DNA of 64,000 bases from Escherichia coli (GTDB taxonomy: Bacteria; Pseudomonadota; Gammaproteobacteria; Enterobacterales; Enterobacteriaceae), in the NCBI RefSeq assembly GCF_030013595.1, contig NZ_CP122768.1; one strand, given 5' to 3'. Positions within the stretch are counted from its first letter, which is position 1. The number at the start of each line of letters is the position of its first letter. The notes beneath the pieces are model-generated. The model was given only the letters and a program-made list of their open reading frames with translations. It made no database searches and had not been told where the DNA came from. Positions 31,047 to 64,000 of this stretch are shown here, in pieces. Position numbers and translations under genes: made by a program.

Positions 31047-31093
31047 CAACGGGCGTGTTATACGCCCGTTTCAATATTTAACACATGTAGAGA

Positions 31094-31257: not shown

Positions 31258-31767
31258 GTATATAAAAACATTAAGTTCAATTCATTGATATTTAATGATA
31301 AAAATTATTTTATTGTCTTTTTATTAGCCAAAATCAACTTTATTCAACCGTTTGATTTCATTGACGTTCGTTTTTATTTTGGGGAAAGGTTTTCTCTACC
31401 ATTTATATCCAAATTACAAGTCTACATTTTATTAACATCTCAATACATGTGAGGCCTTGCAGACCTTTGTGAGACCTTATGTGTCTCTGTTTTGTCCCAC
31501 CTTGTATTACGACTTGCATAGCCAATGAAGATAAATGTGACGACAAACGGCGCGGCAGTCTTCTTTTCCTTCATACTTTCCCCACCCAGCATGCATACCT
31601 TTATGCCATAACTGAAGTTTATGTCTGTTATGAGCGATGAGCGGAAGTTCACTACTTCATGACTAACATTGAAGTGTCCTAAGCAACGGGGAGCAGCTCA
31701 AGGAGTGTGTTAGTGCAATTACACTAACACAGCTACTAAAAATAAAAATACCAAAACTACAGTTATT

Positions 31768-32883
31768 CTATGCGCCTGGATTGGGTTCGATCATACTCAG
31801 CGTTTTTGCTATTTTCTTAATCTCATCATCATTATCCAAAAAAGAGGCGTCTTTTATTACCACAGTACGCTCTTCTTGTAATAGCTCACCTATTTTTTCT
31901 TCTATAAAATCTAAGGTTGGCATTATAATCTGGATGTCTCGAGAAAAAGTAGTTTTTGCATCTTCTATACTGTTGAATCCATTATGTATATGAGTGAATA
32001 TTCTCTTTTTAAACTGTATGTCTTCTGGATTTCCCACTAACTGACTGAAATCTCCTTTCATAACTCTTTCGCTTGTTTCAAAGAGCTGTATTGCTATCGA
32101 GTCGATTAATTCCTTTTTGGACAGAGATGCTTGTTCATAAAATTTGGTGACTAACTCTGTTGGTAACTTTCTTGAGACGACTTTAATGGACAGTCTCTGA
32201 AATAGGTAAGGTGCCACCACGCCCACACTGAAAGGGTGAATCCTCCCTGGATTTAATAATTTTATTGTGACGTTTTCAAAAACTAGCTCATTGATTTTAC
32301 TATTTATGAATTCCATTAAATACTTATCTAATGATAATGTTACCGACGCAACCGCTTCTATCACTTGTTTAAATGGCTCGCCTTTCAAGGATTTAAAAAA
32401 CTCTTTGTTATAACCAAAGAAATCCACAAAACCTAAATTTATTCGATTTTCTTCTTTAGTATTTGAAATGCGAATTTGAAGTTGTTTTAAGTCTTCATCG
32501 GTCAAGTATTTTAAACCATAGTCATCAAGCGCGTTACGTATAACTTTATCTGCAGATTCTAAGTCGATTACAGTTTTTACATTAAAAAACAATGATAACA
32601 ATGAATCATACTTATGAACTCGCAAGGTTAAATCTGTTGCATTTGATGCGGTTACATTTATACGTCTCAAAAGATCAATAACTTTACTAATTGGTAGGCT
32701 GTTTTCAAAAATTTTGAATGACTCGTATTCAGATACAACATCTTTTATATACTTACTGATAGTATGAGACTTTATTTCCACCTCAACTTCGGTTGAGTAA
32801 GAATGAATTAGTGAGTTTGTAGTTTCAGCGATGTCATTTGATACATACAACTTATATTCGAAACAATCAGGAGCGGGAAGCAA
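31768..32883 (-). CDS. Continuation reading frame of the Mrr-like gene (about 370 codons, unknown function); no independent start, probably joined by a frameshift
   Basis: Open for 371 codons in AT-rich DNA but first in-frame ATG is about 190 codons in; no SD before the TTG at 32883; overlaps upstream ORF by 76 nt in a different frame. Confidence 0.5.
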   Translation of the reverse strand: MLPAPDCFEYKLYVSNDIAETTNSLIHSYSTEVEVEIKSHTISKYIKDVVSEYESFKIFENSLPISKVIDLLRRINVTASNATDLTLRVHKYDSLLSLFFNVKTVIDLESADKVIRNALDDYGLKYLTDEDLKQLQIRISNTKEENRINLGFVDFFGYNKEFFKSLKGEPFKQVIEAVASVTLSLDKYLMEFINSKINELVFENVTIKLLNPGRIHPFSVGVVAPYLFQRLSIKVVSRKLPTELVTKFYEQASLSKKELIDSIAIQLFETSERVMKGDFSQLVGNPEDIQFKKRIFTHIHNGFNSIEDAKTTFSRDIQIIMPTLDFIEEKIGELLQEERTVVIKDASFLDNDDEIKKIAKTLSMIEPNPGA

Positions 32884-33233
32884 CTATTATCAATAATGGA
32901 AAACAATAAAAATTTAATTATTTCTCTTAATGCTTGCGGTCTAGTTATTCTACCTTGCATTTTTTTACATTGTATTAAACCACTTACAACACCGTTATGG
33001 TATAGCACGCAGTCGCGTCCTCTTTCAGAAACTCCTTGCATTAAAGATATTGAGGATATATTTTTATGCTTTCCATCTTCAATTTCGTTCTTTACTAACA
33101 AATAACATAGCAACTCAAATTCTCGATCACCTAATTCTGAAAAGGGAAGCAATCCGATACCAGAATCTATAGTCCATGGTCTATATCCTGATTGAGCCTC
33201 GATATTAATTTGTTCGTCACTGATTTTTTTCAC
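32808..33233 (-). CDS. Mrr-like PD-(D/E)xK restriction-endonuclease catalytic domain protein (N-terminal part of a probably longer gene)
   Basis: GTG start at 33233 with strong SD (AAGGAGatttaaGTG); translation ...LGDREFELLCYLLVKNEIEDGKHKNISSISLMQGVSERGRDCVLYHNGVVSGLIQCKKMQGRITRPQALREII fits the Mrr_cat pattern (FExL..LL, GxD, QxK, later R). Confidence 0.6.
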   Translation of the reverse strand: MKKISDEQINIEAQSGYRPWTIDSGIGLLPFSELGDREFELLCYLLVKNEIEDGKHKNISSISLMQGVSERGRDCVLYHNGVVSGLIQCKKMQGRITRPQALREIIKFLLFSIIDNSCFPLLIVSNISCMYQMTSLKLQTH

Positions 33234-33548
33234 TTAAATCTCCTTCTAATCTTATTGACCTACTCCCTACATTGTAACAGGGGATGATGATAAGGTGTAT
33301 CTTTCGAGCTATAAGCACGATAAATAAGTGATTAAAAATGACTCTTTAAACTATTTTAATTTAAAAAATTAATTGTTAGTTCTAATTATGGTATGAGGGC
33401 ATTTTCGGCATAGTTCTAACCATATACTTTGGTAAAAATGACTGTTACGGAACAGACCATAGTAATGCCTGCTATTGGCACGGAGCGGGCCGCCTGAGCG
33501 CCGTGGGGTCTGCAAACGGTAAGCATACCGATAACTATACGCTTGGCC

Positions 33549-33968
33549 TTAGTAACTTTTGCTCCCCTCAATAAATCCGCCATCTTTTATCGGACTGCAA
33601 TGTCCTTCTTCATCAATCAGTTGCTCGTCTTTCAGGTAGGTATATCGATAGATAATTGAGCCATTATCCATCTCACCATTGGTTCGTTTCATTAGGAGAG
33701 TAAAATGTAACGGGCTGTCCCTATATCGAGCTATTCCATGAATATTGGCAAGTACCTCATATTGACGCTCAGGTGATAACCCTTTAAATACATCGAGATA
33801 TCCATGGAATGTTCCATAGAGTGAAGAAGTGTAGATCAGTCGCTGCTCTGGACCAGTAACTTTAAGAGTAATTTGTTCACCCGTATTACAGGTTAGCTTG
33901 GCGGGAAATGTCTCAGCCTGAGCAGAAGAAATAGTCAAGCTTAAAATTATCAGGTAGCAATATTTCAT
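33549..33968 (-). CDS. Secreted (signal-peptide) protein of unknown function, prophage cargo
   Basis: ATG at 33968; MKYCYLIILSLTISSAQA|ETFPAKLTCNTGEQITLKV... (AxA signal peptidase site); AT-rich. Confidence 0.6.
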   Translation of the reverse strand: MKYCYLIILSLTISSAQAETFPAKLTCNTGEQITLKVTGPEQRLIYTSSLYGTFHGYLDVFKGLSPERQYEVLANIHGIARYRDSPLHFTLLMKRTNGEMDNGSIIYRYTYLKDEQLIDEEGHCSPIKDGGFIEGSKSY

Positions 33969-34252
33969 GTGATTAGAATGTCCAAAACTAACATGTATAC
34001 TCGGGATTCTATAACTAGTTGGATGTAGACCCAAGATGTATTGGACTATTCTTCGGTTGTAGTTGGTCAAATCATATATTTTATGTCAGCAATGTCTACT
34101 TTTGGCACATAGCAGACCAGAGACACTGGCGTAAAGCCATGGAGGATCGGTGGGAGGAGGTAAAAATCCTCTCATGCAAAAAATACGCAAAATCGATAAC
34201 AGTTGGAAATCATTCAATACTCGCACTATCGGAAGTTCACCAGCCAGTCGTA

Positions 34253-34290
34253 GCACGTTCTTGCATATGACGTGGCTACGGGTTTCGAGA
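34253..34290. repeat. Direct repeat R1: diverged copy of the pinE 3' end plus terminator hairpin
   Basis: gtAGCACGtTCTTGCATAtGACGTGgCTACGGgTTTC aligns with 35270-35305 (gcAGCACGaTCTTGCATAcGACGTGCTACGGTTTC). Confidence 0.7.
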
Positions 34291-34376
34291 CCGACCCGAT
34301 CATCAAACGAAACATAAAATTAGCTCACATTATGAGGAAAGGTATCTTTTTGCGCTATGTAAATTCAAAGGGTTAG

Positions 34377-35246
<870 letters not shown>

Positions 35247-35269
35247 GTCTTTAAGTGATAAGCATAAAC

Positions 35270-35305
35270 CGCAGCACGATCTTGCATACGACGTGCTACG
35301 GTTTC
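35270..35305. repeat. Direct repeat R2: pinE 3' end/terminator hairpin
   Basis: Hairpin GCAGCACG-13nt-CGTGCTAC immediately after pinE stop codon; partner of R1. Confidence 0.7.
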
Positions 35306-35858
35306 ATTTATCTCCGACCGGAAACTTCTTATACAAAGTCGATACACCCACATCGTAGATAATCGCCACCTTCTGGCGAGGAGTTCCTGCTGCAATTAAT
35401 CTTCCGGCTTGTGCCCATTGTTCTGGTGTAAGTTTGGGACGACGTCCACCAATTCGTCCCTGTGCGCGAGCAGCTTCCAGTCCAGCTTTTGTTCGTTCAA
35501 CAATCAGTTCACGCTCCATTTCAGCCAGGGCACCCATCACATGAAAGAAAAAGCGTCCCATTGGTGTGCTGGTATCAATTGAATCCGTCAGACTATGAAA
35601 GTTGATGCCTCGTTCGCGCAACTCCTCCACCAACACGACAAGATGCCGCATACTACGCCCCAGCCGATCCAGCTTCCAGACAACCAGAGTGTCACCTGCC
35701 GATAATGTCCTGAGCAGTTTTTTCAGTCCCGGCCTTTCGGACTTTGTGCCGCTTATCTTGTCTTCAAAAATCAGCTCGCATCCTGCACAGTTCAGCGCAT
35801 TACGTTGTAGATCTGTGTTCTGGTCATTTGTTGATACGCGTACATAGCCAATAAGCAT
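35304..35858 (-). CDS. pinE: Serine DNA invertase Pin (Gin/Hin/Cin family)
   Basis: MLIGYVRVSTNDQNTDLQRNALNCAGCELIFEDKISGTKSERPGLKKLLRTLSAGDTLVVWKLDRLGRSMRHLV..., 184 aa, catalytic Ser in VRVSTNDQ; ORF trimmed to ATG 35858. Confidence 0.88.
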   Translation of the reverse strand: MLIGYVRVSTNDQNTDLQRNALNCAGCELIFEDKISGTKSERPGLKKLLRTLSAGDTLVVWKLDRLGRSMRHLVVLVEELRERGINFHSLTDSIDTSTPMGRFFFHVMGALAEMERELIVERTKAGLEAARAQGRIGGRRPKLTPEQWAQAGRLIAAGTPRQKVAIIYDVGVSTLYKKFPVGDK

Positions 35859-35884
35859 GGTAGATCCCCCTGACAAAAGCAGGA

Positions 35885-36283
35885 ATGATGCCATTTGCTC
35901 GTTATTTCTGCATTTTCATAAACGTTGGTTTGGGAGAAGCGGCAAAGAGGAATGTGGGGACAGGAGAAAATCAGGTACCGGATATGAACAGCTTTGGTAA
36001 CTCATTGACCGCCAATGGATACCAGAAATTACCTGGGGGGATGATTATTCAATGGGGGAGTTTTTCTGTCTCACCAACCGGAGGAAGTGTTGGAACAGTT
36101 GATATAACATTACCTGTAGCTTTCCCTGCTGCTTGTCGTTCGGTAAACGCTCTTATTTCAACTAATGATCCTTCTGCCCGTTCTGTGGGCTTTGATATTG
36201 GAAGTACCAACAGAACTAAAATCAGATTTACTTACACTTCTGCTACAACAAATTCAATTTACTGGATGGCTGTGGGGTATTAA
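35885..36283 (+). CDS. Alternative tail-fibre C-terminal (variable) segment, currently in unfused orientation
   Basis: Reading frame open from 35864 without conserved fibre N-terminus; followed 3 nt later by a tail-fibre-assembly gene. Confidence 0.5.
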   Translation: MMPFARYFCIFINVGLGEAAKRNVGTGENQVPDMNSFGNSLTANGYQKLPGGMIIQWGSFSVSPTGGSVGTVDITLPVAFPAACRSVNALISTNDPSARSVGFDIGSTNRTKIRFTYTSATTNSIYWMAVGY

Positions 36284-36285
36284 CT

Positions 36286-36717
36286 ATGGAAAAGACATAT
36301 TATTTTAATCCCTCTGATTCGGGATTTTATATTTCACCAGATAGCCAAACCATTCCTGAGAACGCTACGAAAATAAACTTTACTATTTATTCTGAGTTCG
36401 CAGGAGTTGCATGGCCTGATGGTAAAATACTTGGTTCAGATAAAAATGGTTTTCCAGCATGGCAGGATGCGCCACCACTTACCAGCGAAGAATTAATCTC
36501 AATCGCTGAATCAAATAAACAGCGATTAGTTAATCAGGCCAACGAATACATGAACAGTAAACAATGGCCTGGTAAAGCGGCGATTGGTCGTCTGAAAGGT
36601 GAGGAACTGGCGCAATATAATTTGTGGCTGGATTATCTGGACGCACTGGAACTGGTCGATACTTCCAGTGCGCCAGATATTGAATGGCCTACTCCTCCGG
36701 CAGTTCAGGCCAGATGA
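36286..36717 (+). CDS. Tail fibre assembly protein (alternative orientation)
   Basis: 143-aa ORF ending ...[28 protein letters not shown]; C-terminus similar to minus-strand Tfa (...[25 protein letters not shown]). Confidence 0.65.
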   Translation: MEKTYYFNPSDSGFYISPDSQTIPENATKINFTIYSEFAGVAWPDGKILGSDKNGFPAWQDAPPLTSEELISIAESNKQRLVNQANEYMNSKQWPGKAAIGRLKGEELAQYNLWLDYLDALELVDTSSAPDIEWPTPPAVQAR

Positions 36718-37294
36718 CATCCGGCGCGGTACTGGTATCTGTTGCCGTCACCGCGTCAATGTAATCCAGCACAGTGTTAAGTCGGGTGGTCTCTGCCTGC
36801 ATCAGCTTCCGCCCGGCCTGCAATTTCAGTTGAATCAGACTAATGGAAGCCATTGCAGTATCAATCAGTGACTGACGTTGTGCTTCTGCCGCGTCTACTG
36901 CGGCGCTATGCTGTGTCTCAGTATCCGTTACCCATTTCTCACCATCCCATTTATCGTATGGCGTTAACGGGGCGATAGTGGTTGTTTTTTCGGGGTAATC
37001 ACCCGGAGTTGTGATTTCTTTGGCGTCTCCCGTTTCGGTGTTATAGACGATTTCACCGCGATGGTCTGGTACATATTCCCATGAGTTAAAATCTGCAGAG
37101 CGGCAGATTGCATAACCAGCTTTGTAGGTGCCTGGAGCATCTAAACAGGAATATGCCGGAATGCCGACACCAACAGCAAGATATTCAGTTGAAGCTGAAA
37201 TATACTCCCGACTCATGACGTCAAAGTTATAAACAGTAATTTCTCCTGCCATAGTGGCAATTAATTCACTGTTTAATTCTGCGTTATTCATCAT
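36689..37294 (-). CDS. Tail fibre assembly protein
   Basis: 201-aa ORF immediately downstream of tail fibre gene (4-nt overlap); conserved Tfa C-terminal motif. Confidence 0.7.
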
Positions 37295-38076
37295 GCGGCC
37301 CTCACAATATAATTAAAGGCGATGTTACGTGGACGATTTTCATTTGCTGTTGGAACAACATTTGCCGCCGAGAAGTGAACATCTTGTCGGATTTTTCGGT
37401 CATTAGCGTATGTCATAGACACATTGATGTTATTCCGGACTGAGGTACCTCCGTAAAAAGCTCCACTCACACTTTGAACATCGACAATTGCATTAATTTC
37501 GCTGTTTACGCGCAACTGACCAAAACCGCCAGTAATGTTTCGAATAGCATCTCCTTGCGATGAAAGCAGAGTTCGCCCACTATCCACACCACGTTCATCA
37601 TCCCAGCCACGAATAAACTCACCGCGTAAATCAGGCAATTTATTTGTCGGGTAAGACTTTGCCAGTTCCGGGTATTCTTCAGCAGAAAAAGCCGCACCAT
37701 TGCATTTCAGCCAGCCTGTTGGTGGAGTGGCTGAAGGCCACGGAACAGGCACACCAACGGGTAATGCCGAACCTTCTCCCAAACCAAGGTTTTCGAGAGC
37801 TGTTTTCACCGTGCCATCCGATTTGATATCGCCAAACGGATTCTTGCGGCTTAACAGCAGCGCACGAAGCGCGGTAAGCAGCTGGTCATGCCGCCCCTTC
37901 TCCAGGCTGGCACCGGATGCCTCCACAACGCTGCAAAGCTCCTCCTGCAACATGTCAAAGTAGTCATCATCCAGATCGGTGGCAGGCGTGCCGGTCTGGG
38001 GGTTACCACGGGTAAAACCGTTCTTACCCGCGCCGAACTTATCCTTCTGCGCGGTTTTCGTGTCTATACGATGCAT
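37291..38076 (-). CDS. Tail fibre protein (constant N-terminus fused to current variable C-terminus)
   Basis: 261-aa [50 protein letters not shown]... ending ...[11 protein letters not shown]. Confidence 0.7.
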
Positions 38077-38079
38077 GGA

Positions 38080-38664
38080 TTACTCCGGATATTTAAAAAT
38101 CACATAGGTATGCGACGGGCAGAGTTTGTTAAGAACACACTCGACAACGGTGTCCCCCCAGAAGCGCAGCGCGGAATCACAGGGATCGCCACATGTCATC
38201 CAGGTGGTGTTGGTGGCGGCTGGCATGTTGACCTGCCAGTAATACCGCCATTCAGGCGCATTCACCGCGTCAGTACAGGCCGATGAGCAGGTGAACGTGC
38301 TTTTGTCGTATCGCGTGATGTTGGCATCCAGTCTGCCCAGGGCAGCAAGCTGTGCAAGATAAAAATTCTCGTTGATGCCGCCCGCCAGGTTAACCTTCGC
38401 ATCCAGCCGTTGCTGACGCTGGCGAAGGGTCTGTGTCCCTGTAGGAATACATTCATCCGGCAGGCCGCACAGACGCTCCCAGCGATTTATCAGTTCGGTG
38501 GTGGTGCGCGGATCCAGCTCCCGCATCAGGGCATCCGCACGCTGATGAACGCGGGTTAATGACGGTGCCGCACCGGCAATCGCCGGATCGCTGGCTGACC
38601 ACGCCGGACCGGGCGGCAACAGTGCTGACAACAGACGGATGTAATCATCGTTTGTCACGTCCAT
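38080..38664 (-). CDS. Tail/baseplate protein (Mu gp48-like)
   Basis: 194-aa ORF between baseplate J gene and tail fibre gene; gene order matches Mu tail module. Confidence 0.6.
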
Positions 38665-39713
38665 GAAATCGCCCCCAGAACCGCCAGTTCATTTTTTGCA
38701 ATGGTGATATTGTCCGCCGGTGCAAGCAACTGATGGCTGTATTCCCCGTTCGCACCGGAAATCGCTTCACTGATACGTGACACCTTCAGTTCTCCCTGCG
38801 GATAACCATCACGCAGCAGGAACGAACGCAACTCCGCGGTGATGGCAGCCCGTATTTCCGGTGTGTCCGGCGTAACACGGATATGAAAATCCACCGTATG
38901 TGCCACCGGCCTGAACACATACAAATCAGAGCCTGCCACCGGGGCCAGTGGCCCGATATGTTGTCTTGCCGCCGTTTCCGTTGATTCTTCCGGAATGGGA
39001 TTAATCAGGTCACTGCTGGCAATCATCACACCGACAGTCCCCGTTCCCATCCAGTGTCGGTATGTCCATGCGCGGGTAATGCCAGGCACTTCTTTAGCCC
39101 AGACGACATAGTCCCCGTCAGCCCCGCCCTGCGGCGTCCAGTAATACCGCTCAATGACGCGGGCGCGCCACGTTTCCAGCTCTTCAGTATCAAATCCGCC
39201 TGTCAGGGTGTCAGCCACACCGGAAGACGGCAGACCATTCACCGGCGTGACCAGGATTAATGCCGTACCGTCGTCAGCGTTACCGACCGCACCTGCACTT
39301 GAGCAGGCGATCGGCACGCGCAGGACACCACCGGAGCTGATTGCATCGTCAGTTGTCGTGTACTGCACCAGGTCATCGCGCTGAATAACACTCCCGGCAG
39401 TCACCTTCAGGCCATCGCTGACACCTTCCCAGCGCATATACCCGCTGGCAACCGTGGCTCCCTTGCGCGGACACCGTTTCATCGCAGCATGTCGCGCCAA
39501 CCAGGACTCATCGCACAGGTCAGGCAGCATATTCATTGCCAGATAATCGATGTAACCGTAGACCGTATGCAGCGCCGCCGCATACACCTTTGCCCGCACG
39601 TCTTCATCCATGCGCCGGAGCGTGTCGCTGACGTCCAGCCTGGCGAATAAATCGTTACGGAGCATACTGATATTTTCTGCCAGCGTCGGGCGCTGAAATT
39701 CACTGTCCGCCAT
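38655..39713 (-). CDS. Baseplate J-like protein (Mu gp47-like)
   Basis: 352-aa ORF; size and position in Mu-like order. Confidence 0.65.
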
Positions 39714-40128
39714 GCGTTATCGCACTCCACAGATCATCAAAAGAAATCATTACTGGTCCATCACGACGCCAGAGGGTGATACTGTTACCCAGCTCATTAA
39801 TCCCGGTGCGGCGGATATCCAGATCAATACGGGACACCACGCCGTCATCAGTCATCCATTGCAGGCATTCGCGGATATATCCCCTTACCGTCTGCACCAG
39901 CTGATTGGTCAGTTTGCTGCGCTGAAGCAGCCACAGTCGGGAGCCGTAACGGTCATTCTGTACCGCAGGCCAGGTATCCCCCCACCATCCCATCGGGACG
40001 TCGGCATTGTCATCAGGCTCCGCCCGCCGCCAGGTGAACAGGGAAATCACCACGGCGCGGGTCAGCGGATCCAGCGGTGCGCTGGCGCAGGTGCGTTTAC
40101 CGTTCACCGTCAGCCACAGTTCCATCAT
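39700..40128 (-). CDS. Baseplate protein (Mu gp46 / gp25-like)
   Basis: 142-aa ORF; position between V-like and J-like genes. Confidence 0.55.
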   Translation of the reverse strand: MMELWLTVNGKRTCASAPLDPLTRAVVISLFTWRRAEPDDNADVPMGWWGDTWPAVQNDRYGSRLWLLQRSKLTNQLVQTVRGYIRECLQWMTDDGVVSRIDLDIRRTGINELGNSITLWRRDGPVMISFDDLWSAITHGGQ

Positions 40129-40673
40129 GCCTCCATCGCTTTATCAGGTTTGTCGGTGTTACTGCCCTGACCGTTCTCTCTGTGACGATGCCCGTTATAG
40201 GCAAGCCGCATCGCTGACATGGTGGTGCCGCCGGAGTCGCACAGGTCTTTCACTTGTCCGGTCACTTCCAGATCCATTTCAAAACGTGCTTCAGTTGCAT
40301 TGCGAAACGTGATCGTTTTCCCTGCACCGTCCACCACGATCCCCTCCCGGGTCAGCGTCACAGACTGCCCCTGATCGTCATAGACAGCCACCTCACCCGT
40401 CTGCAGCCCTTTCAGGCGGTAGCGCCGGTCCGACACCGTAACAACCACCGCATGAGAACGGTCGCCATCCGGAAACAACACCACCGCTTCCGCACCGCTG
40501 TTTGCCCTTGCGGTAAAACCGTAGGGTTCAAGATGTTCAACCCCGGCTTTGGGTTCACCGGCAATCAGGGACACATCCACGGTCTGACATTTCGTGGCGG
40601 CACTGATGCTTTTCACCACGGCCCGCCCAATCAGGCCGAGAAGTTGTCGCTGCATGGCTTCAATCGTCCTCAT
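40125..40673 (-). CDS. Baseplate assembly protein V-like (Mu gp45-like spike)
   Basis: 182-aa ORF; position. Confidence 0.6.
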   Translation of the reverse strand: MRTIEAMQRQLLGLIGRAVVKSISAATKCQTVDVSLIAGEPKAGVEHLEPYGFTARANSGAEAVVLFPDGDRSHAVVVTVSDRRYRLKGLQTGEVAVYDDQGQSVTLTREGIVVDGAGKTITFRNATEARFEMDLEVTGQVKDLCDSGGTTMSAMRLAYNGHRHRENGQGSNTDKPDKAMEA

Positions 40674-41752
40674 CAGAACGGGTCCTCCTGTACTCTGGCT
40701 TTTTTCTTTTTCCGCGCGCCGGGGGCTTCGGGTCCAGGCAGATAAGCATCAGGCGGGCCGACACGGATTTCCGTCAGGGTGCCGTTCTGGTCCTGAGTAA
40801 ACGTGACTTCCGAGACAAGCAGTTCGGTATTGTCGAAACCACAGACCGGATCGAAGACAATCACCCGCTGGTTGGGCTGCCACAGCGTACCGTTACCCTG
40901 TCGCCAGCCCTGCACCACATAGGTGGTTTCATCCGTCCGCGCCGCCCGTTGCCGGGCTTCAAAGTCAGCACGCGCAATACAGCCTGCCCCCGTAGCCTGC
41001 CCTGTCTGCCTGATATACATCGGACGGTAACGGGCAATAAATGCGTCTTCTGTGCGGGCCCGCAGCGCGGTGGTGGTGGCCTCACCGAAATCATCGTCGT
41101 TTCCGGCACGCTGCCCCGCCACCTGGTAAACAGAAAACCGCTCCCGGATACTCTTCTCCGTATCGCAGGAAAGGATGTTTTCCCCGAGTACCAGCGCGGT
41201 ATGTGCCCGCGTTGAGCCAATACCGCCAATCACCAGCCTGCCGTGCGAGTCGTCGTAAGCCAGCGCCTGCTGCTGACCGAGTATTTTGTTGATCACCTCG
41301 ATCACCGTTTCACCGTGATCAGGCTGGACATCAGGAATAACACCCGACGGCGCACCGCTGTTCACCACCTCAATGCCGAAAGGCGCAGCAAGCGCCTGCG
41401 CAATCTGTACCAGCGATCGTCCGTTAAACTGTGTCGGTTCGGCTGCACAGTCAATCAGGTCAGCGGTCAGACTACGTCCGGCAATACCGGTGCTGACCGA
41501 ACGGGCATCGTAACGAACGGGCGTCGCCTCCACCCAGCCAGTGATCACCAGCTCATCACCAATCAGCACTTCCACTTTTGAACCGTTTTTAATGCGCGGC
41601 TGAAGCGTGGTGATACCCTCATCTCCCGGCCACTGGCGGGTGATCTCCACACTGAAATCCCGCGCCAGTCGTTCAACACCGGCACCGATGCGCACCGATG
41701 TCCAGCCATTCCACTCCCGGCCATTTACCCGTAGCGTGACGTTATCGTTCAT
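40673..41752 (-). CDS. Baseplate hub / tail protein (Mu gp44-like)
   Basis: 359-aa ORF; position following DNA circulation gene. Confidence 0.6.
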   Translation of the reverse strand: MNDNVTLRVNGREWNGWTSVRIGAGVERLARDFSVEITRQWPGDEGITTLQPRIKNGSKVEVLIGDELVITGWVEATPVRYDARSVSTGIAGRSLTADLIDCAAEPTQFNGRSLVQIAQALAAPFGIEVVNSGAPSGVIPDVQPDHGETVIEVINKILGQQQALAYDDSHGRLVIGGIGSTRAHTALVLGENILSCDTEKSIRERFSVYQVAGQRAGNDDDFGEATTTALRARTEDAFIARYRPMYIRQTGQATGAGCIARADFEARQRAARTDETTYVVQGWRQGNGTLWQPNQRVIVFDPVCGFDNTELLVSEVTFTQDQNGTLTEIRVGPPDAYLPGPEAPGARKKKKARVQEDPF

Positions 41753-43077
41753 TGCACTGGCACCTTCAGAGGGATCACCGGCACAAAGCCGGGATGCGTA
41801 ATGGCATTACGCCGGATAATGTCCCCGTCACGCGCCGCGTTATCAAACCAGGTCGCCGCCAGCACCAGCGCGGGTAAAACCTCATCCGGCGTGCGCTGAA
41901 TGATCCGTGCAGACTGTTCAAGGCGCGTGTTGATATCCGCATTCAGATCTGCTTTCACCCGGCGCAGCGCCAGAAACAGCGCATCACTGGTTGTACGGGA
42001 CAACTCCTTATCAATTGCCGTATTCAGTGTGTCGCGAATGTCAGTCAGTTCTTCCCACGTTGGCAGGTCAACCGTGCTTTTCACCGCCGGTGCATTGTTC
42101 AGTGCCGGATGCGTGACGGAAGGCCAGCCAGTGCTCTGCGCGGGTGTTGTTGCCTGCCCCACTGCGGCATTCTGCATCACCGCGGAAGTTGTTGGCGCAG
42201 GCAATCGGGTGACGGCATACGCCGCTTCGCTGATTGCGGTCGTACGAAGGATGCTGGCAACCACGTTACGCTGCTGTGTCGCCGTGGCGGTGGTTTTACT
42301 GTCCGTTTTCCAGACGCCGCGCGGTTGCAGATCGCTGCCAAGGCTGACACCGGAAAGCGTTTTGATCATGGTGACCAGGTCGCTGGCGTTACCATAAAGG
42401 CGTTTCCCGGTACGCCACATTTTCTGCACCTGCTCAACGAAATTTTTGCCTGACGATGGTGGCGGCAGAAGTACCGAGATATCCCCCTGCAACAGCCTGG
42501 CAGCATCCGATACGGCAGAATCCACCACTTTCATCGCATCAGAAACATACCCAAGCATTGTGCTGGCATTACCGACGACGTCGTTCTGCACAAAATCCGC
42601 CACGCCATCGATACTGAAACCGCTGAAGCTGTCACTGATGCAGTTATCCAGTGCAGAACAGGATGACATCAGCGTCTGCGCCGTCGCCGCACCTGATGTG
42701 GGGTAAGAGAGTTCTCCTGCTTCGACAAACTTCAGGTCAAAGCGGACAATACGCCCTTCACTTTTCGATGTGCTGACCCGAACTTCCCCGTCAACACAGA
42801 CTTTCAGCTCACCGTATGTCGGATGGACAAGCGTGCCGGGACCGGGTTTATTCAGCGCGTCAATCAGGCGATCGCGCTGGTCAAAGCAGTCATCTCCCAC
42901 CACATAAGCCGTGATGGACGGGCGAAAAGTGATTTTCCCCAGGTCTTCGGTATAGGGTTTGTCGCGGTTCGGGTATTCATGTGTTTCCACACGGCGACCG
43001 GTTCCCGCACTTTCTTCTTCAACCTTAAACGGCACACCTCGAAATGACGCATCCTGAAGCCTGTCTTTCCACGTCAT
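41749..43077 (-). CDS. DNA circulation protein (Mu gp43-like)
   Basis: ATG at 43077 with SD GGAG 5 nt upstream; MTWKDRLQDASFRGVPFKVEEESAGTGRRVETHEYPNRDKPYTEDLG... (conserved N-terminal motif of this family). Confidence 0.7.
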   Translation of the reverse strand: MTWKDRLQDASFRGVPFKVEEESAGTGRRVETHEYPNRDKPYTEDLGKITFRPSITAYVVGDDCFDQRDRLIDALNKPGPGTLVHPTYGELKVCVDGEVRVSTSKSEGRIVRFDLKFVEAGELSYPTSGAATAQTLMSSCSALDNCISDSFSGFSIDGVADFVQNDVVGNASTMLGYVSDAMKVVDSAVSDAARLLQGDISVLLPPPSSGKNFVEQVQKMWRTGKRLYGNASDLVTMIKTLSGVSLGSDLQPRGVWKTDSKTTATATQQRNVVASILRTTAISEAAYAVTRLPAPTTSAVMQNAAVGQATTPAQSTGWPSVTHPALNNAPAVKSTVDLPTWEELTDIRDTLNTAIDKELSRTTSDALFLALRRVKADLNADINTRLEQSARIIQRTPDEVLPALVLAATWFDNAARDGDIIRRNAITHPGFVPVIPLKVPVQ

Positions 43078-43087
43078 ATACACTCCG

Positions 43088-43118
43088 AAAATAAAAAAGC
43101 CACCTATTAGAAGGTGGC
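43088..43118 (-). terminator. Intrinsic terminator of the moron gene, located inside the tail operon
   Basis: Minus strand: GCCACCTattagAAGGTGGC followed by ttttttatttt. Confidence 0.7.
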
Positions 43119-43138
43119 CTTGTAATGAATTTTATTAA

Positions 43139-53129: not shown

Positions 53130-53311
53130 TATTTACCTCCGCCGACAGACGACTGTGTACGGTCGAGATATCGCGCCACCAGCCACGACCAGAACAGGCA
53201 CAACGCCCCGGCAACAACAAACCCCGCCGGGGGATAAATCAGCCAGGCACCATACGCCAGCAAAAGCGCCCCCAGCACGCCCACCAGAGGCGCGAGAATC
53301 AGCATGATCAT
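53129..53311 (-). CDS. Small two-helix membrane protein between terminase and portal genes
   Basis: 60-aa [52 protein letters not shown]..., SD GAGGT, stop overlaps portal start (TAGTG). Confidence 0.6.
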
Positions 53312-53322
53312 AATTACCTCAG

Positions 53323-55056
53323 TTAAAGCGAGCGGATCCCATAGGACTCAATGTGGTCAGACAACGTGTCTTCTTTCTCGTACAGCATGGCTCTGCCAAC
53401 CGCCATAATCAGCGCAACTGCACCATCGATTTTGTTTTCCGCCTGCTCTTTGACGGGCTTCACCACATCATCGTTACCCGGAATGGTTTTGCCGACCACG
53501 TTGCCGATACACCAGGTCATGATGGGATTGCCATCATGATGAAAGCGCCCCGATTCAATTGCCGCTTCCAGCTCTTTCATCGGGTCGGACATGTTGGTGT
53601 AGTTCTGAATGATAGTGATGGGGTTCAGGTCTTCATCAGCCAGGTCATGTGACAGCCCGGTCGCCCCGAAGGGGTCGATGGGTGACTCACTGACCGGGCT
53701 GATTTTGTTCGCCGCTTTGGCCTCCTCGAGGATGTAGCGATAATCCACCTCCGCACCATCGGTAACGGTCAGAACGCCCATTACCACCCATTTCTGAAAG
53801 CGTTCGGCTGTCCGTCGATCTTCATTTTTCTCGACACTGTACACCGTGTCATACGGTACCCAGAAACGCGGGGCCACACTGTAGTAATGCGTTTTACCGT
53901 CAATCTCGCGGGTATAAAGTCGCGCCATGCTGTTCATATCCAGCTTACGCGCCAGGTCAAAGGCCAGAATGCACGGCTGCCCCTCGAACTGCTCAAGGGT
54001 CAGTGATTTATCCTCGCAGCTCTGCCAGCTCACCAGGTTGAAATACGCCGAACGCGCCGACACCCAGATATTGAGGTGCTTTGTTTTAAAGACGTTTGCC
54101 AGACGGGCGTTATTTTTCGCACGCTGCTGCTGACTTAACAAAAATTCGCGATAAACCGACACGCCAATATTCGGGTTAGCTTTTTCCAGCACCTGCGGGT
54201 CGGTCCAGTCATCGCCTTCGTCAACGGTATAGATGATCCCGAACAGTTCATCGTTGGGTACCGACCCGTTGAGCATCTCGATAACTTCCCGCCGCTTGTC
54301 GTAGCACGGCCCCTCAATGTTGTACCCGGCAGTAGTAATGGCCCACATCAGTGGCTGACGTCGCGCCCCCATCCCGGTAAGCATCGTGGTGTAAAGCGCA
54401 TCGGTGGCGTGCTCGTGATATTCATCCACCACCGCACAGTGGGGTGATGATCCATCACCGGGGTTACCGATCAGCGGTTCAAACCGCGCGCCATCCTCCG
54501 GACGGTTCATGTTTGAGGCGTTAACCTCAATCCCGAACGCTTCCGTCAGCATGGGCGTGCGTTTACACATCAGTCGCGCCGGGCGAAAGACTTCCCACGC
54601 CTGTTTCTCTGTCGTGGCACCGGAATACACTTCCGCGCCAAACTCGTTATCACAGGCAAAACAATACAGGGCAACACCGGCAGAGATTGCTGATTTGCCG
54701 TTCTTACGGGGGATTTCGGTATACACCTCCCGGAAGCGGCGCAACCGGGTGCCTTTATTGACCCAGCCAAACGCACAGCAGATCACAAAGAGCTGCCACG
54801 GCTCCAGCGTGATGGGCATCCTCTTGAATGCCCACTCACCCTTGGTGTGCGGCAACAGCTGAATAAATTTGGCGGCCCGTTCAGCCAGGTCCTTGTCGAA
54901 GCGGTAACGAAACGACTTACTTTTTTCCGCCATCAGGTCATCAAGATGGCGCTGGCAGGCCTGAATCACAAACTGGCAGGCCACAATCTTTCCGCGAACG
55001 ACATCCCGGGCATACTGATTGGCAGCATTTACGTTGGGGTAAGATTTCCGGCTCAT
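53323..55056 (-). CDS. Terminase large subunit
   Basis: 577-aa ORF with Walker A-like IPRKNGKS and Walker B-like VVDEYHEH, C-terminal nuclease region. Confidence 0.85.
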
Positions 55057-55556
55057 GATTCGATGATTTTCAGAAACGGGTTAGTAGCTTTCTTCTGCCC
55101 CGCCAGGCCAATCAGACGCTGGCGGCTGCTGGGGTCGAGTCCGAGCATTGCCCCCGTGCTGCTCATCTCGGACTCCTGTTCTTTTTTGGCGGTCAGCTCA
55201 GGATTTTTGACCATACCGCCCATTGCACCGGTGATGGTGTTGCCCTGTCTGGCAATATTTTTCACGGCACGTCGCCAGAACTCATAGGCCACACACCACC
55301 GCTCAAGCACCGCGAGGTCAGTCACGCACAGCAGGCCCTGACCGCAAAGTTCTTTAGTTGTCAGTTGCCACATGATCGTGGCGAGAGGGAGATCTTCTTC
55401 AGCGAACCACTCCGGTGGCTCAACACCTTTGATGGGCGTAAAAACAGGTTCATCTTTATTCAGGGCTCGCTTGCCGGGGTTTCCGGCCAGCGCCTTGCGC
55501 GCCGTTGGCTTGGGGCGACGCCCGGAACGCCCCGCCGTTCCAGCCATATGCGGCAC
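55053..55556 (-). CDS. Terminase small subunit (P27 family)
   Basis: 167-aa [40 protein letters not shown]...; 4-nt overlap with large subunit gene. Confidence 0.75.
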
Positions 55557-55672
55557 TCCTGGTTAAATTTCATTTTTCGCGGGTATAAAAAAACGATGGG
55601 GCGGGCAGTCCGGAAGACGTCAGGTCACAGAGATTTGACCCGCCCCTCCCCTCAGACAGTTGAGAATTATTA

Positions 55673-56023
55673 TCACTTTAGCCGTTCACGGGCCGTCTTC
55701 GCCTTATGGCACGGCCAGCACAGGCTCTGCAGATTACTGTCTGCATCGGTGCCGCCATGCGCTTTAGGGATGATGTGGTCAACGGTTTTCGCCTCACGCA
55801 CCACACCAGCACGCAGACATAACTGACACAGGCCTTTGTCACGCTTCAATATGCGCGCGCGGATACTGTCCCACTTCGAACCGTAGCCGCGCTGATGACG
55901 GGATTGCCCCGGCTTGTATTGTTTCCAGCCTTCGTTTTTGTGGCTTTCGCAGTAGCCTGACGGGTCTGTAGTGGTATTACGGCAGCCGCGAACGCGGCAG
56001 GCTTTTGGGATTCGTGATGGCAT
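55673..56023 (-). CDS. HNH endonuclease (terminase-associated)
   Basis: ATG 56023 with SD GGAG; MPSRIPKACRVRGCRNTTT...CQLCLRAGVVREAKTVDHIIPKAHGGTDADSNLQSLCWPCHKAKT. Confidence 0.8.
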   Translation of the reverse strand: MPSRIPKACRVRGCRNTTTDPSGYCESHKNEGWKQYKPGQSRHQRGYGSKWDSIRARILKRDKGLCQLCLRAGVVREAKTVDHIIPKAHGGTDADSNLQSLCWPCHKAKTARERLK

Positions 56024-56246
56024 ATGTACTCCAATGAAGAAGCCACCGACATAGCCTCCTCCATTCATCGTGAAACTATTTTCATCTACGCAGTCATGAA
56101 TTCTTTGTAGAGTTGTGATCAATACAACTCACTAATGGAGAGGCTTGTCCAACACGTTGGACAAGTTTCCTGTTTGATTTACTGGACACTATAGAAGGAC
56201 AGAATGCCTTCCTCACTCGAATAACATTAATTAAGGAGGTTCAACA

Positions 56247-57575
56247 CTGATGAATCCCCTAATGATTTTGGTAAAAATCATTAAGTTAAGGTGGATACAC
56301 ATCTTGTCATATGATCAAATGGTTTCGCGAAAAATCAATAATCAGACAACAAGATGTGCGAACTCGATATTTTACACGACTCTCTTTACCAATTCTGCCC
56401 CGAATTACACTTAAAACGACTCAACAGCTTAACGTTGGCTTGCCACGCATTACTTGACTGTAAAACTCTCACTCTTACCGAACTTGGCCGTAACCTGCCA
56501 ACCAAAGCGAGAACAAAACATAACATCAAACGAATCGACCGATTGTTAGGTAATCGTCACCTCCACAAAGAGCGACTCGCTGTATACCGTTGGCATGCTA
56601 GCTTTATCTGTTCGGGCAATACGATGCCCATTGTACTTGTTGACTGGTCTGATATTCGTGAGCAAAAACGACTTATGGTATTGCGAGCTTCAGTCGCACT
56701 ACACGGTCGTTCTGTTACTCTTTATGAGAAAGCGTTCCCGCTTTCAGAGCAATGTTCAAAGAAAGCTCATGACCAATTTCTAGCCGACCTTGCGAGCATT
56801 CTACCGAGTAACACCACACCGCTCATTGTCAGTGATGCTGGCTTTAAAGTGCCATGGTATAAATCCGTTGAGAAGCTGGGTTGGTACTGGTTAAGTCGAG
56901 TAAGAGGAAAAGTACAATATGCAGACCTAGGAGCGGAAAACTGGAAACCTATCAGCAACTTACATGATATGTCATCTAGTCACTCAAAGACTTTAGGCTA
57001 TAAGAGGCTGACTAAAAGCAATCCAATCTCATGCCAAATTCTATTGTATAAATCTCGCTCTAAAGGCCGAAAAAATCAGCGCTCGACACGGACTCATTGT
57101 CACCACCCGTCACCTAAAATCTACTCAGCGTCGGCAAAGGAGCCATGGGTTCTAGCAACTAACTTACCTGTTGAAATTCGAACACCCAAACAACTTGTTA
57201 ATATCTATTCGAAGCGAATGCAGATTGAAGAAACCTTCCGAGACTTGAAAAGTCCTGCCTACGGACTAGGCCTACGCCATAGCCGAACGAGCAGCTCAGA
57301 GCGTTTTGATATCATGCTGCTAATCGCCCTGATGCTTCAACTAACATGTTGGCTTGCGGGCGTTCATGCTCAGAAACAAGGTTGGGACAAGCACTTCCAG
57401 GCTAACACAGTCAGAAATCGAAACGTACTCTCAACAGTTCGCTTAGGCATGGAAGTTTTGCGGCATTCTGGCTACACAATAACAAGGGAAGACTTACTCG
57501 TGGCTGCAACCCTACTAGCTCAAAATTTATTCACACATGGTTACGCTTTGGGGAAATTATGAGGGGATCTCTCAG
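56247..57575 (+). mobile_element. IS10 (1329 bp, complete), no flanking 9-bp target duplication
   Basis: Outside end CTGATGAATCCCCTAATGATTTTGGTAAAAATCATTAAG at 56247, inside end ...TTATGAGGGGATCTCTCAG at 57575; flanks ggttcaaca / tattaagcg differ. Confidence 0.9.
56354..57562 (+). CDS. IS10 transposase
   Basis: 402-aa ORF MCELDILHDSLYQFCPELHLKRLNSLTLACHALLDCKTLTLTELGRNLPTKARTKHNIKRIDRLLGNRHLHKE... recognised as IS10 Tnp. Confidence 0.92.
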   Translation: MCELDILHDSLYQFCPELHLKRLNSLTLACHALLDCKTLTLTELGRNLPTKARTKHNIKRIDRLLGNRHLHKERLAVYRWHASFICSGNTMPIVLVDWSDIREQKRLMVLRASVALHGRSVTLYEKAFPLSEQCSKKAHDQFLADLASILPSNTTPLIVSDAGFKVPWYKSVEKLGWYWLSRVRGKVQYADLGAENWKPISNLHDMSSSHSKTLGYKRLTKSNPISCQILLYKSRSKGRKNQRSTRTHCHHPSPKIYSASAKEPWVLATNLPVEIRTPKQLVNIYSKRMQIEETFRDLKSPAYGLGLRHSRTSSSERFDIMLLIALMLQLTCWLAGVHAQKQGWDKHFQANTVRNRNVLSTVRLGMEVLRHSGYTITREDLLVAATLLAQNLFTHGYALGKL

Positions 57576-57604
57576 TATTAAGCGTCAATGAGCGTCTGGA
57601 AAGA

Positions 57605-58519
57605 ATGAAAGGCAGGCGCTCAGACATTACGGTGACAGAATGGCTTGATAAATATATTTCTATCCAGGAGGACAGGCTGCAACATAATGAACTAAGACCC
57701 AACTCCTATCGGCAAAAAGGCAAACCCATTCGTCTTTTCCGTGAGCATTGTGGAATGCAACACCTCAAGGATATTACCGCACTTGATATTGCCGAAATAA
57801 TTGATGCTGTAAAGGCTGAAGGTCATAACAGGATGGCGCAAGTCGTGAGAATGGTGTTGATCGACGTCTTCAAAGAAGCACAACACGCAGGACATGTTCC
57901 GCCAGGATTTAACCCAGCGCAGGCAACAAAACAACCGCGAAATCGAGTAAACCGCCAAAGATTGTCACTGCCCGAATGGCAGGCAATATTTGAAAGCGTA
58001 AGCAGACGGCAGCCCTATTTAAAATGCGGCATGCTACTTGCTCTTGTTACTGGACAACGTTTAGGCGATATCTGCAATTTGAAATTCTCTGATATATGGG
58101 ACGACATGTTGCACATTACTCAGGAAAAAACCGGTTCAAAACTTGCTATTCCGCTTAACCTGAAATGCGATGCTCTGAATATTACCCTTCGTGAAGTTAT
58201 ATCTCAGTGCAGGGATGCTGTTGTTAGTAAATATCTGGTCCATTACCGTCACACTACCTCTCAAGCAAACAGAGGAGACCAGGTTTCTGCAAATACTCTG
58301 ACAACGGCTTTTAAAAAGGCCCGGGAAAAATGTGGCATAAAATGGGAGCAAGGAACTGCGCCCACATTTCATGAGCAGCGATCTCTGTCAGAACGGTTAT
58401 ATCGGGAACAGGGTCTGGATACGCAAAAGTTGTTAGGCCATAAATCCAGAAAAATGACCGACCGATACAATGATGATCGTGGTAAAGACTGGATTATCGT
58501 AGATATCAAAACAGCATAG
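57605..58519 (+). CDS. Phage tyrosine integrase (lambda Int-like), apparently lacking the N-terminal arm-binding domain
   Basis: 304-aa ORF; ...LLALVTGQRLGDICNLKFSDI...GTAPTFHEQRSLSERLYREQ...LLGHKSRKMTDRYNDD (R...HxxR...Y catalytic signature); aligns to lambda Int from about residue 60 onward. Confidence 0.8.
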   Translation: MKGRRSDITVTEWLDKYISIQEDRLQHNELRPNSYRQKGKPIRLFREHCGMQHLKDITALDIAEIIDAVKAEGHNRMAQVVRMVLIDVFKEAQHAGHVPPGFNPAQATKQPRNRVNRQRLSLPEWQAIFESVSRRQPYLKCGMLLALVTGQRLGDICNLKFSDIWDDMLHITQEKTGSKLAIPLNLKCDALNITLREVISQCRDAVVSKYLVHYRHTTSQANRGDQVSANTLTTAFKKAREKCGIKWEQGTAPTFHEQRSLSERLYREQGLDTQKLLGHKSRKMTDRYNDDRGKDWIIVDIKTA

Positions 58520-58581
58520 AAAATAGCCAGTTTTGGGGAAGGGTTTTGGGGAAAGTTTTGGGGAAGATTTTACATCATCAT

Positions 58582-58609
58582 AAAACAACGGGCGTGTTAT
58601 ACGCCCGTT
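58582..58609 (-). terminator. icd intrinsic terminator (phage-supplied copy)
   Basis: Minus strand: AACGGGCGTATAACACGCCCGTT followed by gtttt, 24 nt after icd stop. Confidence 0.65.
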
Positions 58610-58632
58610 TCAATATTTAACACATGTAGAGA

Positions 58633-59883
58633 TTACATGTTCTTGATGATTGCATCACCAAACTCGCTGCATTTCAGCAGTTTAGCACCTTCCATCAGAC
58701 GTTCGAAGTCATAGGTTACGGTCTTGGCGTTGATTGCGCCTTCCATACCTTTAACAATCAAGTCTGCGGCTTCAGTCCAGCCCATATGGCGCAGCATCAT
58801 CTCAGCGGAGAGAATAATAGAGCCTGGGTTTACTTTGTCCTGACCGGCATATTTCGGCGCAGTACCGTGGGTGGCTTCAAACAGGGCGCATTCGTCACCG
58901 ATGTTTGCGCCTGGGGCGATACCGATACCGCCGACCTGTGCAGCCAGAGCGTCAGAAATGTAGTCACCGTTCAGGTTCATACAGGCGATAACATCATATT
59001 CAGCCGGACGCAGCAGGATCTGTTGCAGGAATGCGTCAGCAATCACGTCTTTAATGACGATCTCTTTGCCGGTATTCGGGTTTTTAACTTTCAGCCACGG
59101 GCCGCCGTCGATCAGTTCACCGCCAAACTCTTCACGCGCCAGCTGGTAGCCCCAGTCTTTAAACGCGCCTTCGGTGAACTTCATGATGTTGCCTTTGTGC
59201 ACCAGGGTCACAGAGTCACGATCGTTAGCAATTGCGTATTCGATCGCTGCACGAACCAGACGTTTGGTGCCTTCTTCCGAACACGGCTTAATACCGATAC
59301 CGCAATGTTCCGGGAAGCGAATTTTCTTCACGCCCATCTCTTCACGCAGGAATTTAATCACTTTCTCGGCGTCGGCAGAGTCAGCTTTCCATTCGATACC
59401 CGCATAAATGTCTTCCGAGTTTTCACGGAAGATAACCATATCGGTCAGTTCAGGGTGTTTAACCGGGCTTGGAGTGCCCTGATAGTAACGTACCGGACGC
59501 AGGCAGATGTAGAGATCCAGTTCCTGACGCAGGGCAACGTTCAGAGAGCGAATACCGCCACCAACCGGAGTGGTCAGCGGACCTTTAATGGCAACGCGAT
59601 ATTCACGAATCAGATCAAGGGTTTCAGCAGGCAGCCAGACATCCTGACCATAAACCTGTGTGGATTTTTCACCGGTGTAAATTTCCATCCAGGAGATTTT
59701 ACGCTCGCCTTTATAGGCTTTCTCGACTGCAGCGTCGACCACTTTCAGCATGGCTGGGGTTACATCTACACCGATTCCATCACCTTCAATGTAAGGGATA
59801 ATCGGATTTTCAGGAACGTTGAGTTTGCCGTTTTGCAGGGTGATCTTCTTGCCTTGTGCCGGAACAACTACTTTACTTTCCAT
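58633..59883 (-). CDS. icd: Isocitrate dehydrogenase (NADP), 3' end supplied by prophage
   Basis: 416-aa [76 protein letters not shown]... Confidence 0.95.
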
Positions 59884-60054
59884 TCACCTCTCCTTCGAGC
59901 GCTACTGGTTTGCTCGTCTGCCACCACGTTGCATATGCGTTTGCGTCCTGCGATACGGATGCTTTAGAGCAATTTTTTGTTAATGATTTGTAATTGGCTT
60001 GTCAATACTACCCTATTGTTTGCCGTCATGAAAGATGCGCGTTATTAGGCTATA

Positions 60055-60708
60055 ATGCGGCAATTCATAATCTCTGAAAATACCATGCAAAAAACTTCTT
60101 TTAGAAATCACCAGGTTAAGCGATTCAGCTCGCAACGTTCTACCAGGCGTAAACCTGAAAACCAGCCCACGCGTGTGATCCTGTTCAATAAACCCTACGA
60201 TGTTCTTCCGCAGTTCACCGATGAAGCCGGACGCAAAACATTAAAAGAATTCATCCCGGTTCAGGGCGTTTATGCAGCAGGTCGTCTTGACCGCGATAGC
60301 GAAGGGTTACTGGTGCTGACCAATAACGGCGCGTTGCAGGCGCGTTTAACCCAGCCGGGTAAACGCACCGGAAAAATCTATTATGTGCAGGTGGAAGGTA
60401 TTCCCACACAAGACGCACTTGAAGCCTTGCGCAATGGCGTAACCTTAAATGATGGCCCTACCCTGCCCGCAGGCGTAGAGCTGGTTGACGAACCCGCGTG
60501 GTTATGGCCGCGGAATCCACCAATTCGTGAACGCAAAAGTATTCCCACCAGCTGGCTGAAGATCACCTTATATGAAGGACGTAATCGCCAGGTGCGCCGC
60601 ATGACCGCCCATGTTGGTTTCCCCACGCTGCGACTGATTCGCTATGCGATGGGTGATTACTCTTTGGATAATCTTGCCAACGGCGAATGGCGAGAAGCGA
60701 CAGATTAA
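60055..60708 (+). CDS. rluE: 23S rRNA pseudouridine synthase RluE
   Basis: 217-aa [92 protein letters not shown]. Confidence 0.88.
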
Positions 60709-60717
60709 GGACGCAAA

Positions 60718-61179: not shown

Positions 61180-61232
61180 AAGGCTGCGTGATAGAATACG
61201 CCGCCTTGAAGTTCAATGTCGTGAGTGATCCA

Positions 61233-62339: not shown

Positions 62340-62374
62340 TTATTATCTTTACTTAAAACAAGGAAGCAGTGAAC

Positions 62375-63016: not shown

Positions 63017-64000
<984 letters not shown>

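Follow-up and report, generated by a model that had tools for sequence, protein, structure and literature searches.

A complete IS10 element very probably marks a 16,912-bp deletion within a lambdoid/e14-like prophage integrated in icd of Escherichia coli

Using sequence comparisons across the available Escherichia coli genomes we examined a complete IS10 that lies between the late genes of a prophage and a truncated integrase gene in a 64,000-nucleotide stretch of E. coli DNA (contig NZ_CP122768.1; hereafter the window). We conclude with high confidence that this active-type element marks a 16,912-bp IS10-associated deletion within a lambdoid/e14-like prophage integrated in icd. The element, its recognizable parts and its immediate flanks are the following:

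56247..57575, plus strand: complete IS10 (PGAP name ISVsa5), 1,329 bp, outside end to the left, inside end to the right
56354..57562, plus strand: IS10 transposase gene, an intact ORF of 402 aa in the ORF list
56292..56361, minus strand: RNA-OUT antisense RNA, the product of pOUT, a full-length match to Rfam RF00240 that reads toward the outside end and the HNH gene
56238..56246, no strand: left 9-bp flank, GGTTCAACA, followed in relatives by TGTTTCATTCC... toward bor and the lysis genes
57576..57584, no strand: right 9-bp flank, TATTAAGCG, equal to nt 200-208 of the int gene and preceded in relatives by ...ACCCGACAAA

The initial annotation had already placed a complete IS10 here, in an interval (56238-57605) that does contain the element; it also includes the left flank of 9 bp and, on the other side, the 30 bp that lead to the first ATG of the integrase remnant. 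Both terminal inverted repeats are present, the outside one (CTGATGAATCCCCTAATGATTTT) at 56247-56269 on the plus strand and the inside one at 57552-57575, each as a single match in the window with 0 mismatches and 0 matches expected by chance. Between them a single DDE transposase ORF runs from the outside end to the inside end, as is characteristic of IS10 (IS4 family), and its translation is identical to that of the ISVsa5-family transposase gene of a relative (L001; WP_001339197.1). At the nucleotide level the element is identical to the ISVsa5/IS10 copy of E. coli CH4794 at 1329/1329 positions and differs by 1 nt from the Tn10-borne copy in O157:H7 FRIK944. The RNA-OUT match is strong (98.8 bits, E 7.9e-21; gathering score 41), a stem-loop is also predicted, and its position on the minus strand indicates that pOUT fires leftward, out of the outside end, facing the HNH and terminase genes. 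The window element thus shares with IS10-Right of Tn10 (ISVsa5 in both PGAP and ISfinder naming) the length of 1,329 bp, the terminal repeats and a 402-aa transposase that starts at bp 108. In both, RNA-OUT occupies bp 46-115, and GATC sites are found at bp 67-70 as well as within the inside end.

What sets it apart from a simple IS10 insertion is the lack of the 9-bp target-site duplication and the replacement of one flank by the deletion. As had been observed from the sequence at the outset, GGTTCAACA and TATTAAGCG differ and form no direct repeat. The missing duplication is explained by the 16.9-kb deletion, and is a feature of the insertion event rather than of the element. Of the 6 bases specified in the IS10 target consensus NGCTNAGCN (PMC4574204), each of the two flanks has 4, a level of agreement reached by only 3.7% of the 9-mers in the intact prophage. 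A positive control is provided by the identical IS10 copy of CH4794, which sits in the homologous xis/int region at a distance of 378 bp, between the two copies of a perfect 9-bp duplication (GACTTAGCA); this copy shows how a simple IS10 insertion looks in the same xis/int setting.

The surroundings of the element were delineated using the ORF list, the relatives and the icd sequences at the two prophage boundaries:

31258..58579, no strand: entire prophage remnant in the icd attachment site, made up of the IS10 and ~26 kb of phage DNA, bounded by the icd 3' duplicate and icd
31043-31257: duplicate of the icd 3' end, 215 bp, adjoining iraM
43761..45593, minus strand: tail tape-measure gene with an in-frame stop at 44826-44828 (codon 256), from its translation compared with that of a relative (L006)
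53323..56023, minus strand: first genes of the late region, HNH-TerS-TerL, from the ORF list, the annotation of 97-98% identical relatives and Pfam families
53323-55056, minus strand: large terminase (TerL)
55053-55547, minus strand: P27-family small terminase (TerS)
55673-56023, minus strand: HNH endonuclease
57576..58519, plus strand: truncated integrase gene, codons 67-380, from alignment to the full-length 380-aa int of two relatives (L002 and L045)
58633-59883, minus strand: icd, to the right of the int remnant, with icd sequence from the prophage boundary on (58580-59883)

Judging from the gene content of relatives, the remnant comprises cargo genes, pin, a Mu-like contractile tail, an HK97-like head, terminase, the IS10 and an int stub. 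To the left of terminase the annotation of the 97-98% identical relatives gives ymfR, portal, protease, capsid, the Mu-like contractile tail, ymfQ, tail fibres and pin, and beyond icd on the right lie rluE, nudJ, mnmA and hflD. One cargo gene (31768-33234) is frameshifted and the tape-measure gene is split into parts of 255 aa and 339 aa; the remaining late ORFs are all full length. The same split occurs in near-identical relatives, and as the nonsense allele is common to intact relatives it is older than the deletion. Given the icd 3' duplicate at one end and icd at the other, we are dealing with a single prophage at the icd site and not with a fusion of two loci. An inversion or fusion between prophages via IS10 had been considered, as the first close matches of the late region were thrW/proA prophages, and was ruled out: the far side of the late region is the icd 3' duplicate next to iraM, and homology to the thrW phage begins only 183 bp from that duplicate. 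In TK3896 the point at which this homology starts abuts a tRNA fragment, which is the pattern that a phage of the same type with a different int/att module would show.

The evidence that carries the deletion comes from a near-identical prophage without IS10 at the same icd site, found through exact-protein-sequence look-ups in GCA_900448395.1 (contig UFZA01000001.1). Over 20,593 bp of late region it has 3 mismatches to the window, with which it also shares the nonsense allele of the tape-measure gene. Its icd-proximal part (L045) is identical to the window over 2554/2554 bp ending at 56246, and again over 1236/1236 bp from 57576 to the right of the IS10; between these two breakpoints it holds 16,912 bp in place of the 1,329-bp element of the window. 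Starting from icd, the gene order of this part is int (380 aa, Arm-DNA-bind_1 + Phage_integrase), xis, DUF4222, TraR-like, small ORFs, exo, bet, gam and kil, followed by a 535-aa SIR2_2 protein, an S24 repressor, YdaS/YdaT, O, P, a ren-like gene, an SMR-family gene and an esterase, and then by nin genes, RusA, YlcG, Q, DUF3800, holin, lysozyme, Rz, bor, HNH, TerS and TerL. The interval lost from the window accordingly takes in 31 called genes and the 5' 199 nt of int, and includes bor, the lysis genes, Q, the nin region, O/P, a cro-like gene and the repressor, the SIR2 gene, kil-gam-bet-exo and xis. This is the comparison with an intact icd prophage that the initial annotation had proposed, and it bears out the suggestion made there that an early region was deleted between the late operon and int. 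Further relatives are continuous across one or the other breakpoint, the left one running into lysis genes in TK3896, CH4794 and FWSEC0010 and the right one into the int N-terminus and xis in L001 and L002. None of the genes by which an inducible lambdoid prophage is recognized (repressor/cro, replication, Q, lysis cassette, xis/int) was found elsewhere in 31258-58579.

Both endpoints of the deletion are IS10 termini to the base, the IS is intact, and the alignment with L045 revealed no microhomology between the two breakpoints. It is exceedingly improbable that the early region was never present, or that it was lost independently of an IS with IS10 inserting later at the junction. Other truncations of this phage type do exist, e.g. 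one in which HNH abuts chromosomal genes (L035), but the interval is complete in the near-identical relative, a simple insertion at a later time would have left a 9-bp duplication, which is absent, and the exact endpoints without microhomology likewise speak against a separate earlier loss. Moreover, an HNH-int junction lacking IS10, which would have pointed to such a history, was found in none of the related genomes.

We propose that the ancestor had the order icd'-cargo-pin-tail-head-terminase-HNH-bor-lysis-Q-nin-P/O-cro/cI-SIR2-kil/gam/bet/exo-xis-int-icd. In the preferred scheme IS10 would first have inserted in int at TATTAAGCG (codons 67-69), and a transposase-mediated adjacent deletion would then have fused its outside end with another IS10-type target, GGTTCAACA, which lies 223 bp upstream of HNH; all of the intervening DNA, and with it the left copy of the duplication, would have been lost. 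The int gene is favoured as the primary insertion site because the right junction recurs: IS10 is joined to TATTAAGCG in the same way on another int allele (L020; 3 SNPs), and the contigs of three more assemblies (L014-L016) begin 2-3 nt past it, one of them being 100% identical to the window downstream. The right junction is shared by the following assemblies and reads: GCA_026549125.1 (100% identical to the window downstream), GCA_031929545.1, GCA_014972285.1 and SRR25521803; the left junction, on the HNH side, is seen in the window only. Contig ends of this kind can be read by their junction signatures, with ...GGAGGTTCAACA joined to CTGATGAATCC denoting the same deletion and ...GACAAATATTAAGCG joined to CTGATGAATCC a simple insertion in int.

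Neither the 5,426 complete E. coli genomes nor look-ups of fusion ORFs yielded an isolate with a simple IS10 insertion at either site, and hence the order of events is one that we infer. A synthetic query for such insertions recovered generic IS10 ends only; a 64-bp match in O157 FRIK944, taken up as a candidate, is merely the Tn10 IS10 end, and neither of the hypothetical Int(1-69)-IS10 fusion ORFs (81 aa and 79 aa) is on record. Likewise, no record among the 5,426 genomes covered at least 80% of a query spanning 55000-58700, i.e. the configuration of the window is absent from them. The closest complete chromosome, HCP5S3_I2 (99.9%), was ruled out as a precursor, its icd site being empty.

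Adjacent deletions and recombination between IS copies both leave, as their signature, an IS that lacks direct repeats (PMC9330008). The window shares with deletions of both kinds an endpoint at the IS terminus, an intact IS, the lack of direct repeats and a distal endpoint that resembles a target site; there is no difference in kind. The differing flanks, the exact endpoints and the interval preserved in L045 agree with the original reading of the locus as an IS10-associated adjacent deletion or recombination, two routes that would give the identical sequence. IS10 transposes by cut-and-paste, and adjacent deletions from a single IS10 are said to have been found rare by Roberts, Ascherman and Kleckner in 1991, which makes recombination between two copies a serious alternative mechanism. 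In that case two independently inserted IS10 copies in direct orientation, one at GGTTCAACA upstream of HNH and one in int at TATTAAGCG, each with its duplication, would have recombined through RecA, excising the 16.9 kb together with one copy. We regard this as possible and somewhat less probable than the transposase route, to which it is ranked second; it is a variant of the best explanation that differs only in the deleting enzyme. Its product would be the same as that observed, both flanks resemble IS10 targets, many E. coli have tens of IS10 copies (up to 40 or more places per record), IS10 insertions recur in the xis/int neighbourhood, and IS-IS recombination also leaves an element without direct repeats (PMC9330008). 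However, it calls for three events (two insertions in the same orientation within 17 kb and then the recombination) as against two, and no genome with IS10 at the HNH-side site was found among the 5,426 complete genomes.

The multicopy nature of IS10 also raises the question of an assembly artefact, in which two real copies around an intact early region were collapsed and the interval between them skipped. In favour of this, the short-read assemblies of related isolates (L014-L016) break exactly at the same IS10 end, and the left junction is known from the window alone. Nonetheless, we consider it very unlikely: the window is a contiguous 64-kb stretch through the IS, repeats normally make assemblers break rather than join, and the other decay in the remnant fits a truly defective prophage.

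The deletion associated with IS10 also accounts for the unusual integrase. The break falls at nt 199/200, in codon 67 of the 380-aa Int, and the longest ORF left starts from Met77 (57605) and codes for 304 aa. In the full-length Int, residues 1-71 match PF09003 (lambda Arm DNA-binding; E 4.9e-28) and residues 200-367 the catalytic domain PF00589; in the 304-aa product PF00589 is the only domain match, so that the N-terminal Arm domain which together with the C-terminal catalytic domain defines a functional lambda-type tyrosine integrase is gone. The initial annotation had described an integrase without the arm-binding region; this region is indeed absent here, not as a trait of the integrase type but because the deletion severed the gene at codon 67. 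The int ORF of the window is hence a pseudogene created by the IS10-linked deletion. The stop codon of the transposase (57560-57562) happens to be in frame with the stub, by coincidence. Lambda-type Int requires arm binding and Xis for excision; with both the arm-binding domain and xis lost, excision would not be expected. More generally, a remnant without repressor, replication genes, Q, pR', lysis genes, xis or a working int would be incapable of induction, replication or excision.

In several respects the remnant resembles e14 and other defective prophages integrated in icd of E. coli. Common to them are the site at the icd 3' end with its icd duplicate, the Arm-domain integrase family, pin, ymfQ, ymfR, a late region with Mu-like tail and HK97-like head, and the decay to a non-inducible remnant. 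The two differ in what was retained: e14 of K-12 keeps int, xis and the immunity region with most structural genes gone, whereas the window remnant is the reverse, and the early region that it lost was lambda-like (O/P, Q, exo-bet-gam) as opposed to the e14-like one of e14. The element and the type of event are already known, with IS10, its outward promoter and IS deletions without target duplication all well described, and the locus represents ordinary IS-driven prophage decay with no new mechanism. It does offer a clean, base-resolved case in which a single IS-driven step reduced a complete prophage of 43 kb to an immobile remnant of 26 kb and took away the immunity, replication, lysis and excision functions along with a SIR2-type gene. 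For annotation, it follows that the int ORF should be labelled a pseudogene and the 'prophage' non-inducible, and the IS10-linked deletion may serve as a lineage marker.

The RNA-OUT match on the minus strand agrees with the earlier proposal that the outside end with pOUT points into the minus-strand late operon, and the transposase and int are both on the plus strand, i.e. co-oriented as had been stated. It was on these grounds suggested that the IS could drive both sides. We consider it unlikely that read-through from pOUT meaningfully expresses HNH, terminase and the head genes, or that read-through on the transposase side expresses the int remnant. To be sure, HNH starts 223 bp beyond the end of the IS10, the minus strand has no predicted terminator-like site between pOUT and HNH, and the natural late promoter and Q have been deleted, so that pOUT would be the only known promoter from which HNH, terminase and the head genes might now be read. 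Some pOUT transcripts are also reported to run into neighbouring genes, at about 10% of PlacUV, and IS10 has activated acrEF (PMC9330008). However, an operon of roughly 20 kb is unlikely to be read through without Q antitermination, the tape-measure gene has its nonsense codon, and the int stub is without a start codon, the arm-binding domain and Xis. In addition, a simple consensus promoter scan of 55500-57800 recovered no sigma-70-like site, though it misses pIN and pOUT too. Thus, low-level transcription of HNH and terminase from pOUT is plausible from the arrangement, but no phage would result, and transcription into the int stub would have no recombination function. One highly improbable further reading is that pOUT might constitutively transcribe HNH, terminase and the head genes, and that terminase would then cleave the chromosome at cos and fill heads with neighbouring host DNA, which presumes that the unexcisable prophage still has its cos region; if true, the IS would have created a locked-in packaging module akin to lateral transduction or to a nascent gene-transfer agent.

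The integrase and its vicinity have also been hit by other elements. In another strain an IS3-family element lies in the same int gene 10 nt further in, in EC2341 an IS1 is found in this gene, and CH4794 has its IS10 upstream of xis; these IS3-family, IS1 and IS10 hits show that inactivation of the integrase by insertion sequences is recurrent.

Comparison of the integrase region (window 57576-57590) across related strains revealed that it is broken by differing insertion sequences in several of them (L011-L013, H34 and L001). One of these is an IS3-family element, inserted 10 nt deeper into the gene; in strain EC2341 (H34) the integrase gene is split by IS1; and in E. coli CH4794 (L001) an IS10 with a normal duplication is situated upstream of xis. 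In two further relatives the int allele is a different one, but the position of the IS10/int junction (L020), or of a contig start 2-3 nt past it (L014), is the same. The occurrence of the same breakpoint on distinct alleles suggests that the int junction is a recurrent IS10 target site.

Examination of the surviving prophage, and of the intact relative in GCA_900448395.1 (L045), showed the following features:

Window 56140-56169, plus strand only: hairpin with a 13-bp stem followed by a T-run, between HNH and the IS10 end
Window 43761-45593, minus strand: tail tape-measure gene with an in-frame stop at codon 256 (44826-44828)
Window 31768-33234, minus strand: hypothetical cargo gene (488 aa) at the far end of the prophage, frameshifted near 32880
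L045 5674-7281: SIR2_2-domain gene (535 aa) adjoining the repressor gene, within the interval deleted from the window

The hairpin resembles a terminator of rightward transcription, although no plus-strand gene is present upstream of it. In GCA_002080495.1 (L035, 9147-10351) the same HNH-terminase module, without bor or lysis genes, directly adjoins chromosomal genes (coding for a sulfatase, a radical SAM protein and others), which suggests that a phage of this type was truncated there in a separate event.

The SIR2_2-domain gene, which may be a phage-defence cargo gene, was lost from the window along with the deleted interval. The tape-measure stop divides its gene into ORFs of 255 and 339 aa; given that numerous public contigs carry this allele, those of intact relatives among them, it is older than the IS10 deletion. 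The frameshift in the 488-aa gene is caused by a 1-nt deletion relative to TK3896.

The closest complete chromosome, that of E. coli HCP5S3_I2 (L008; 99.9% identical to window 1-31000 and 58580-64000), has an empty icd site, with icd directly after iraM, so this lineage is not fixed for the prophage.

Separately, the tail-fibre segment adjoining pin (window ~35920-37792) is in reversed orientation in two related loci (L024 and L026) that are elsewhere 99.9-100% identical, a pattern consistent with an invertible host-range switch run by Pin.
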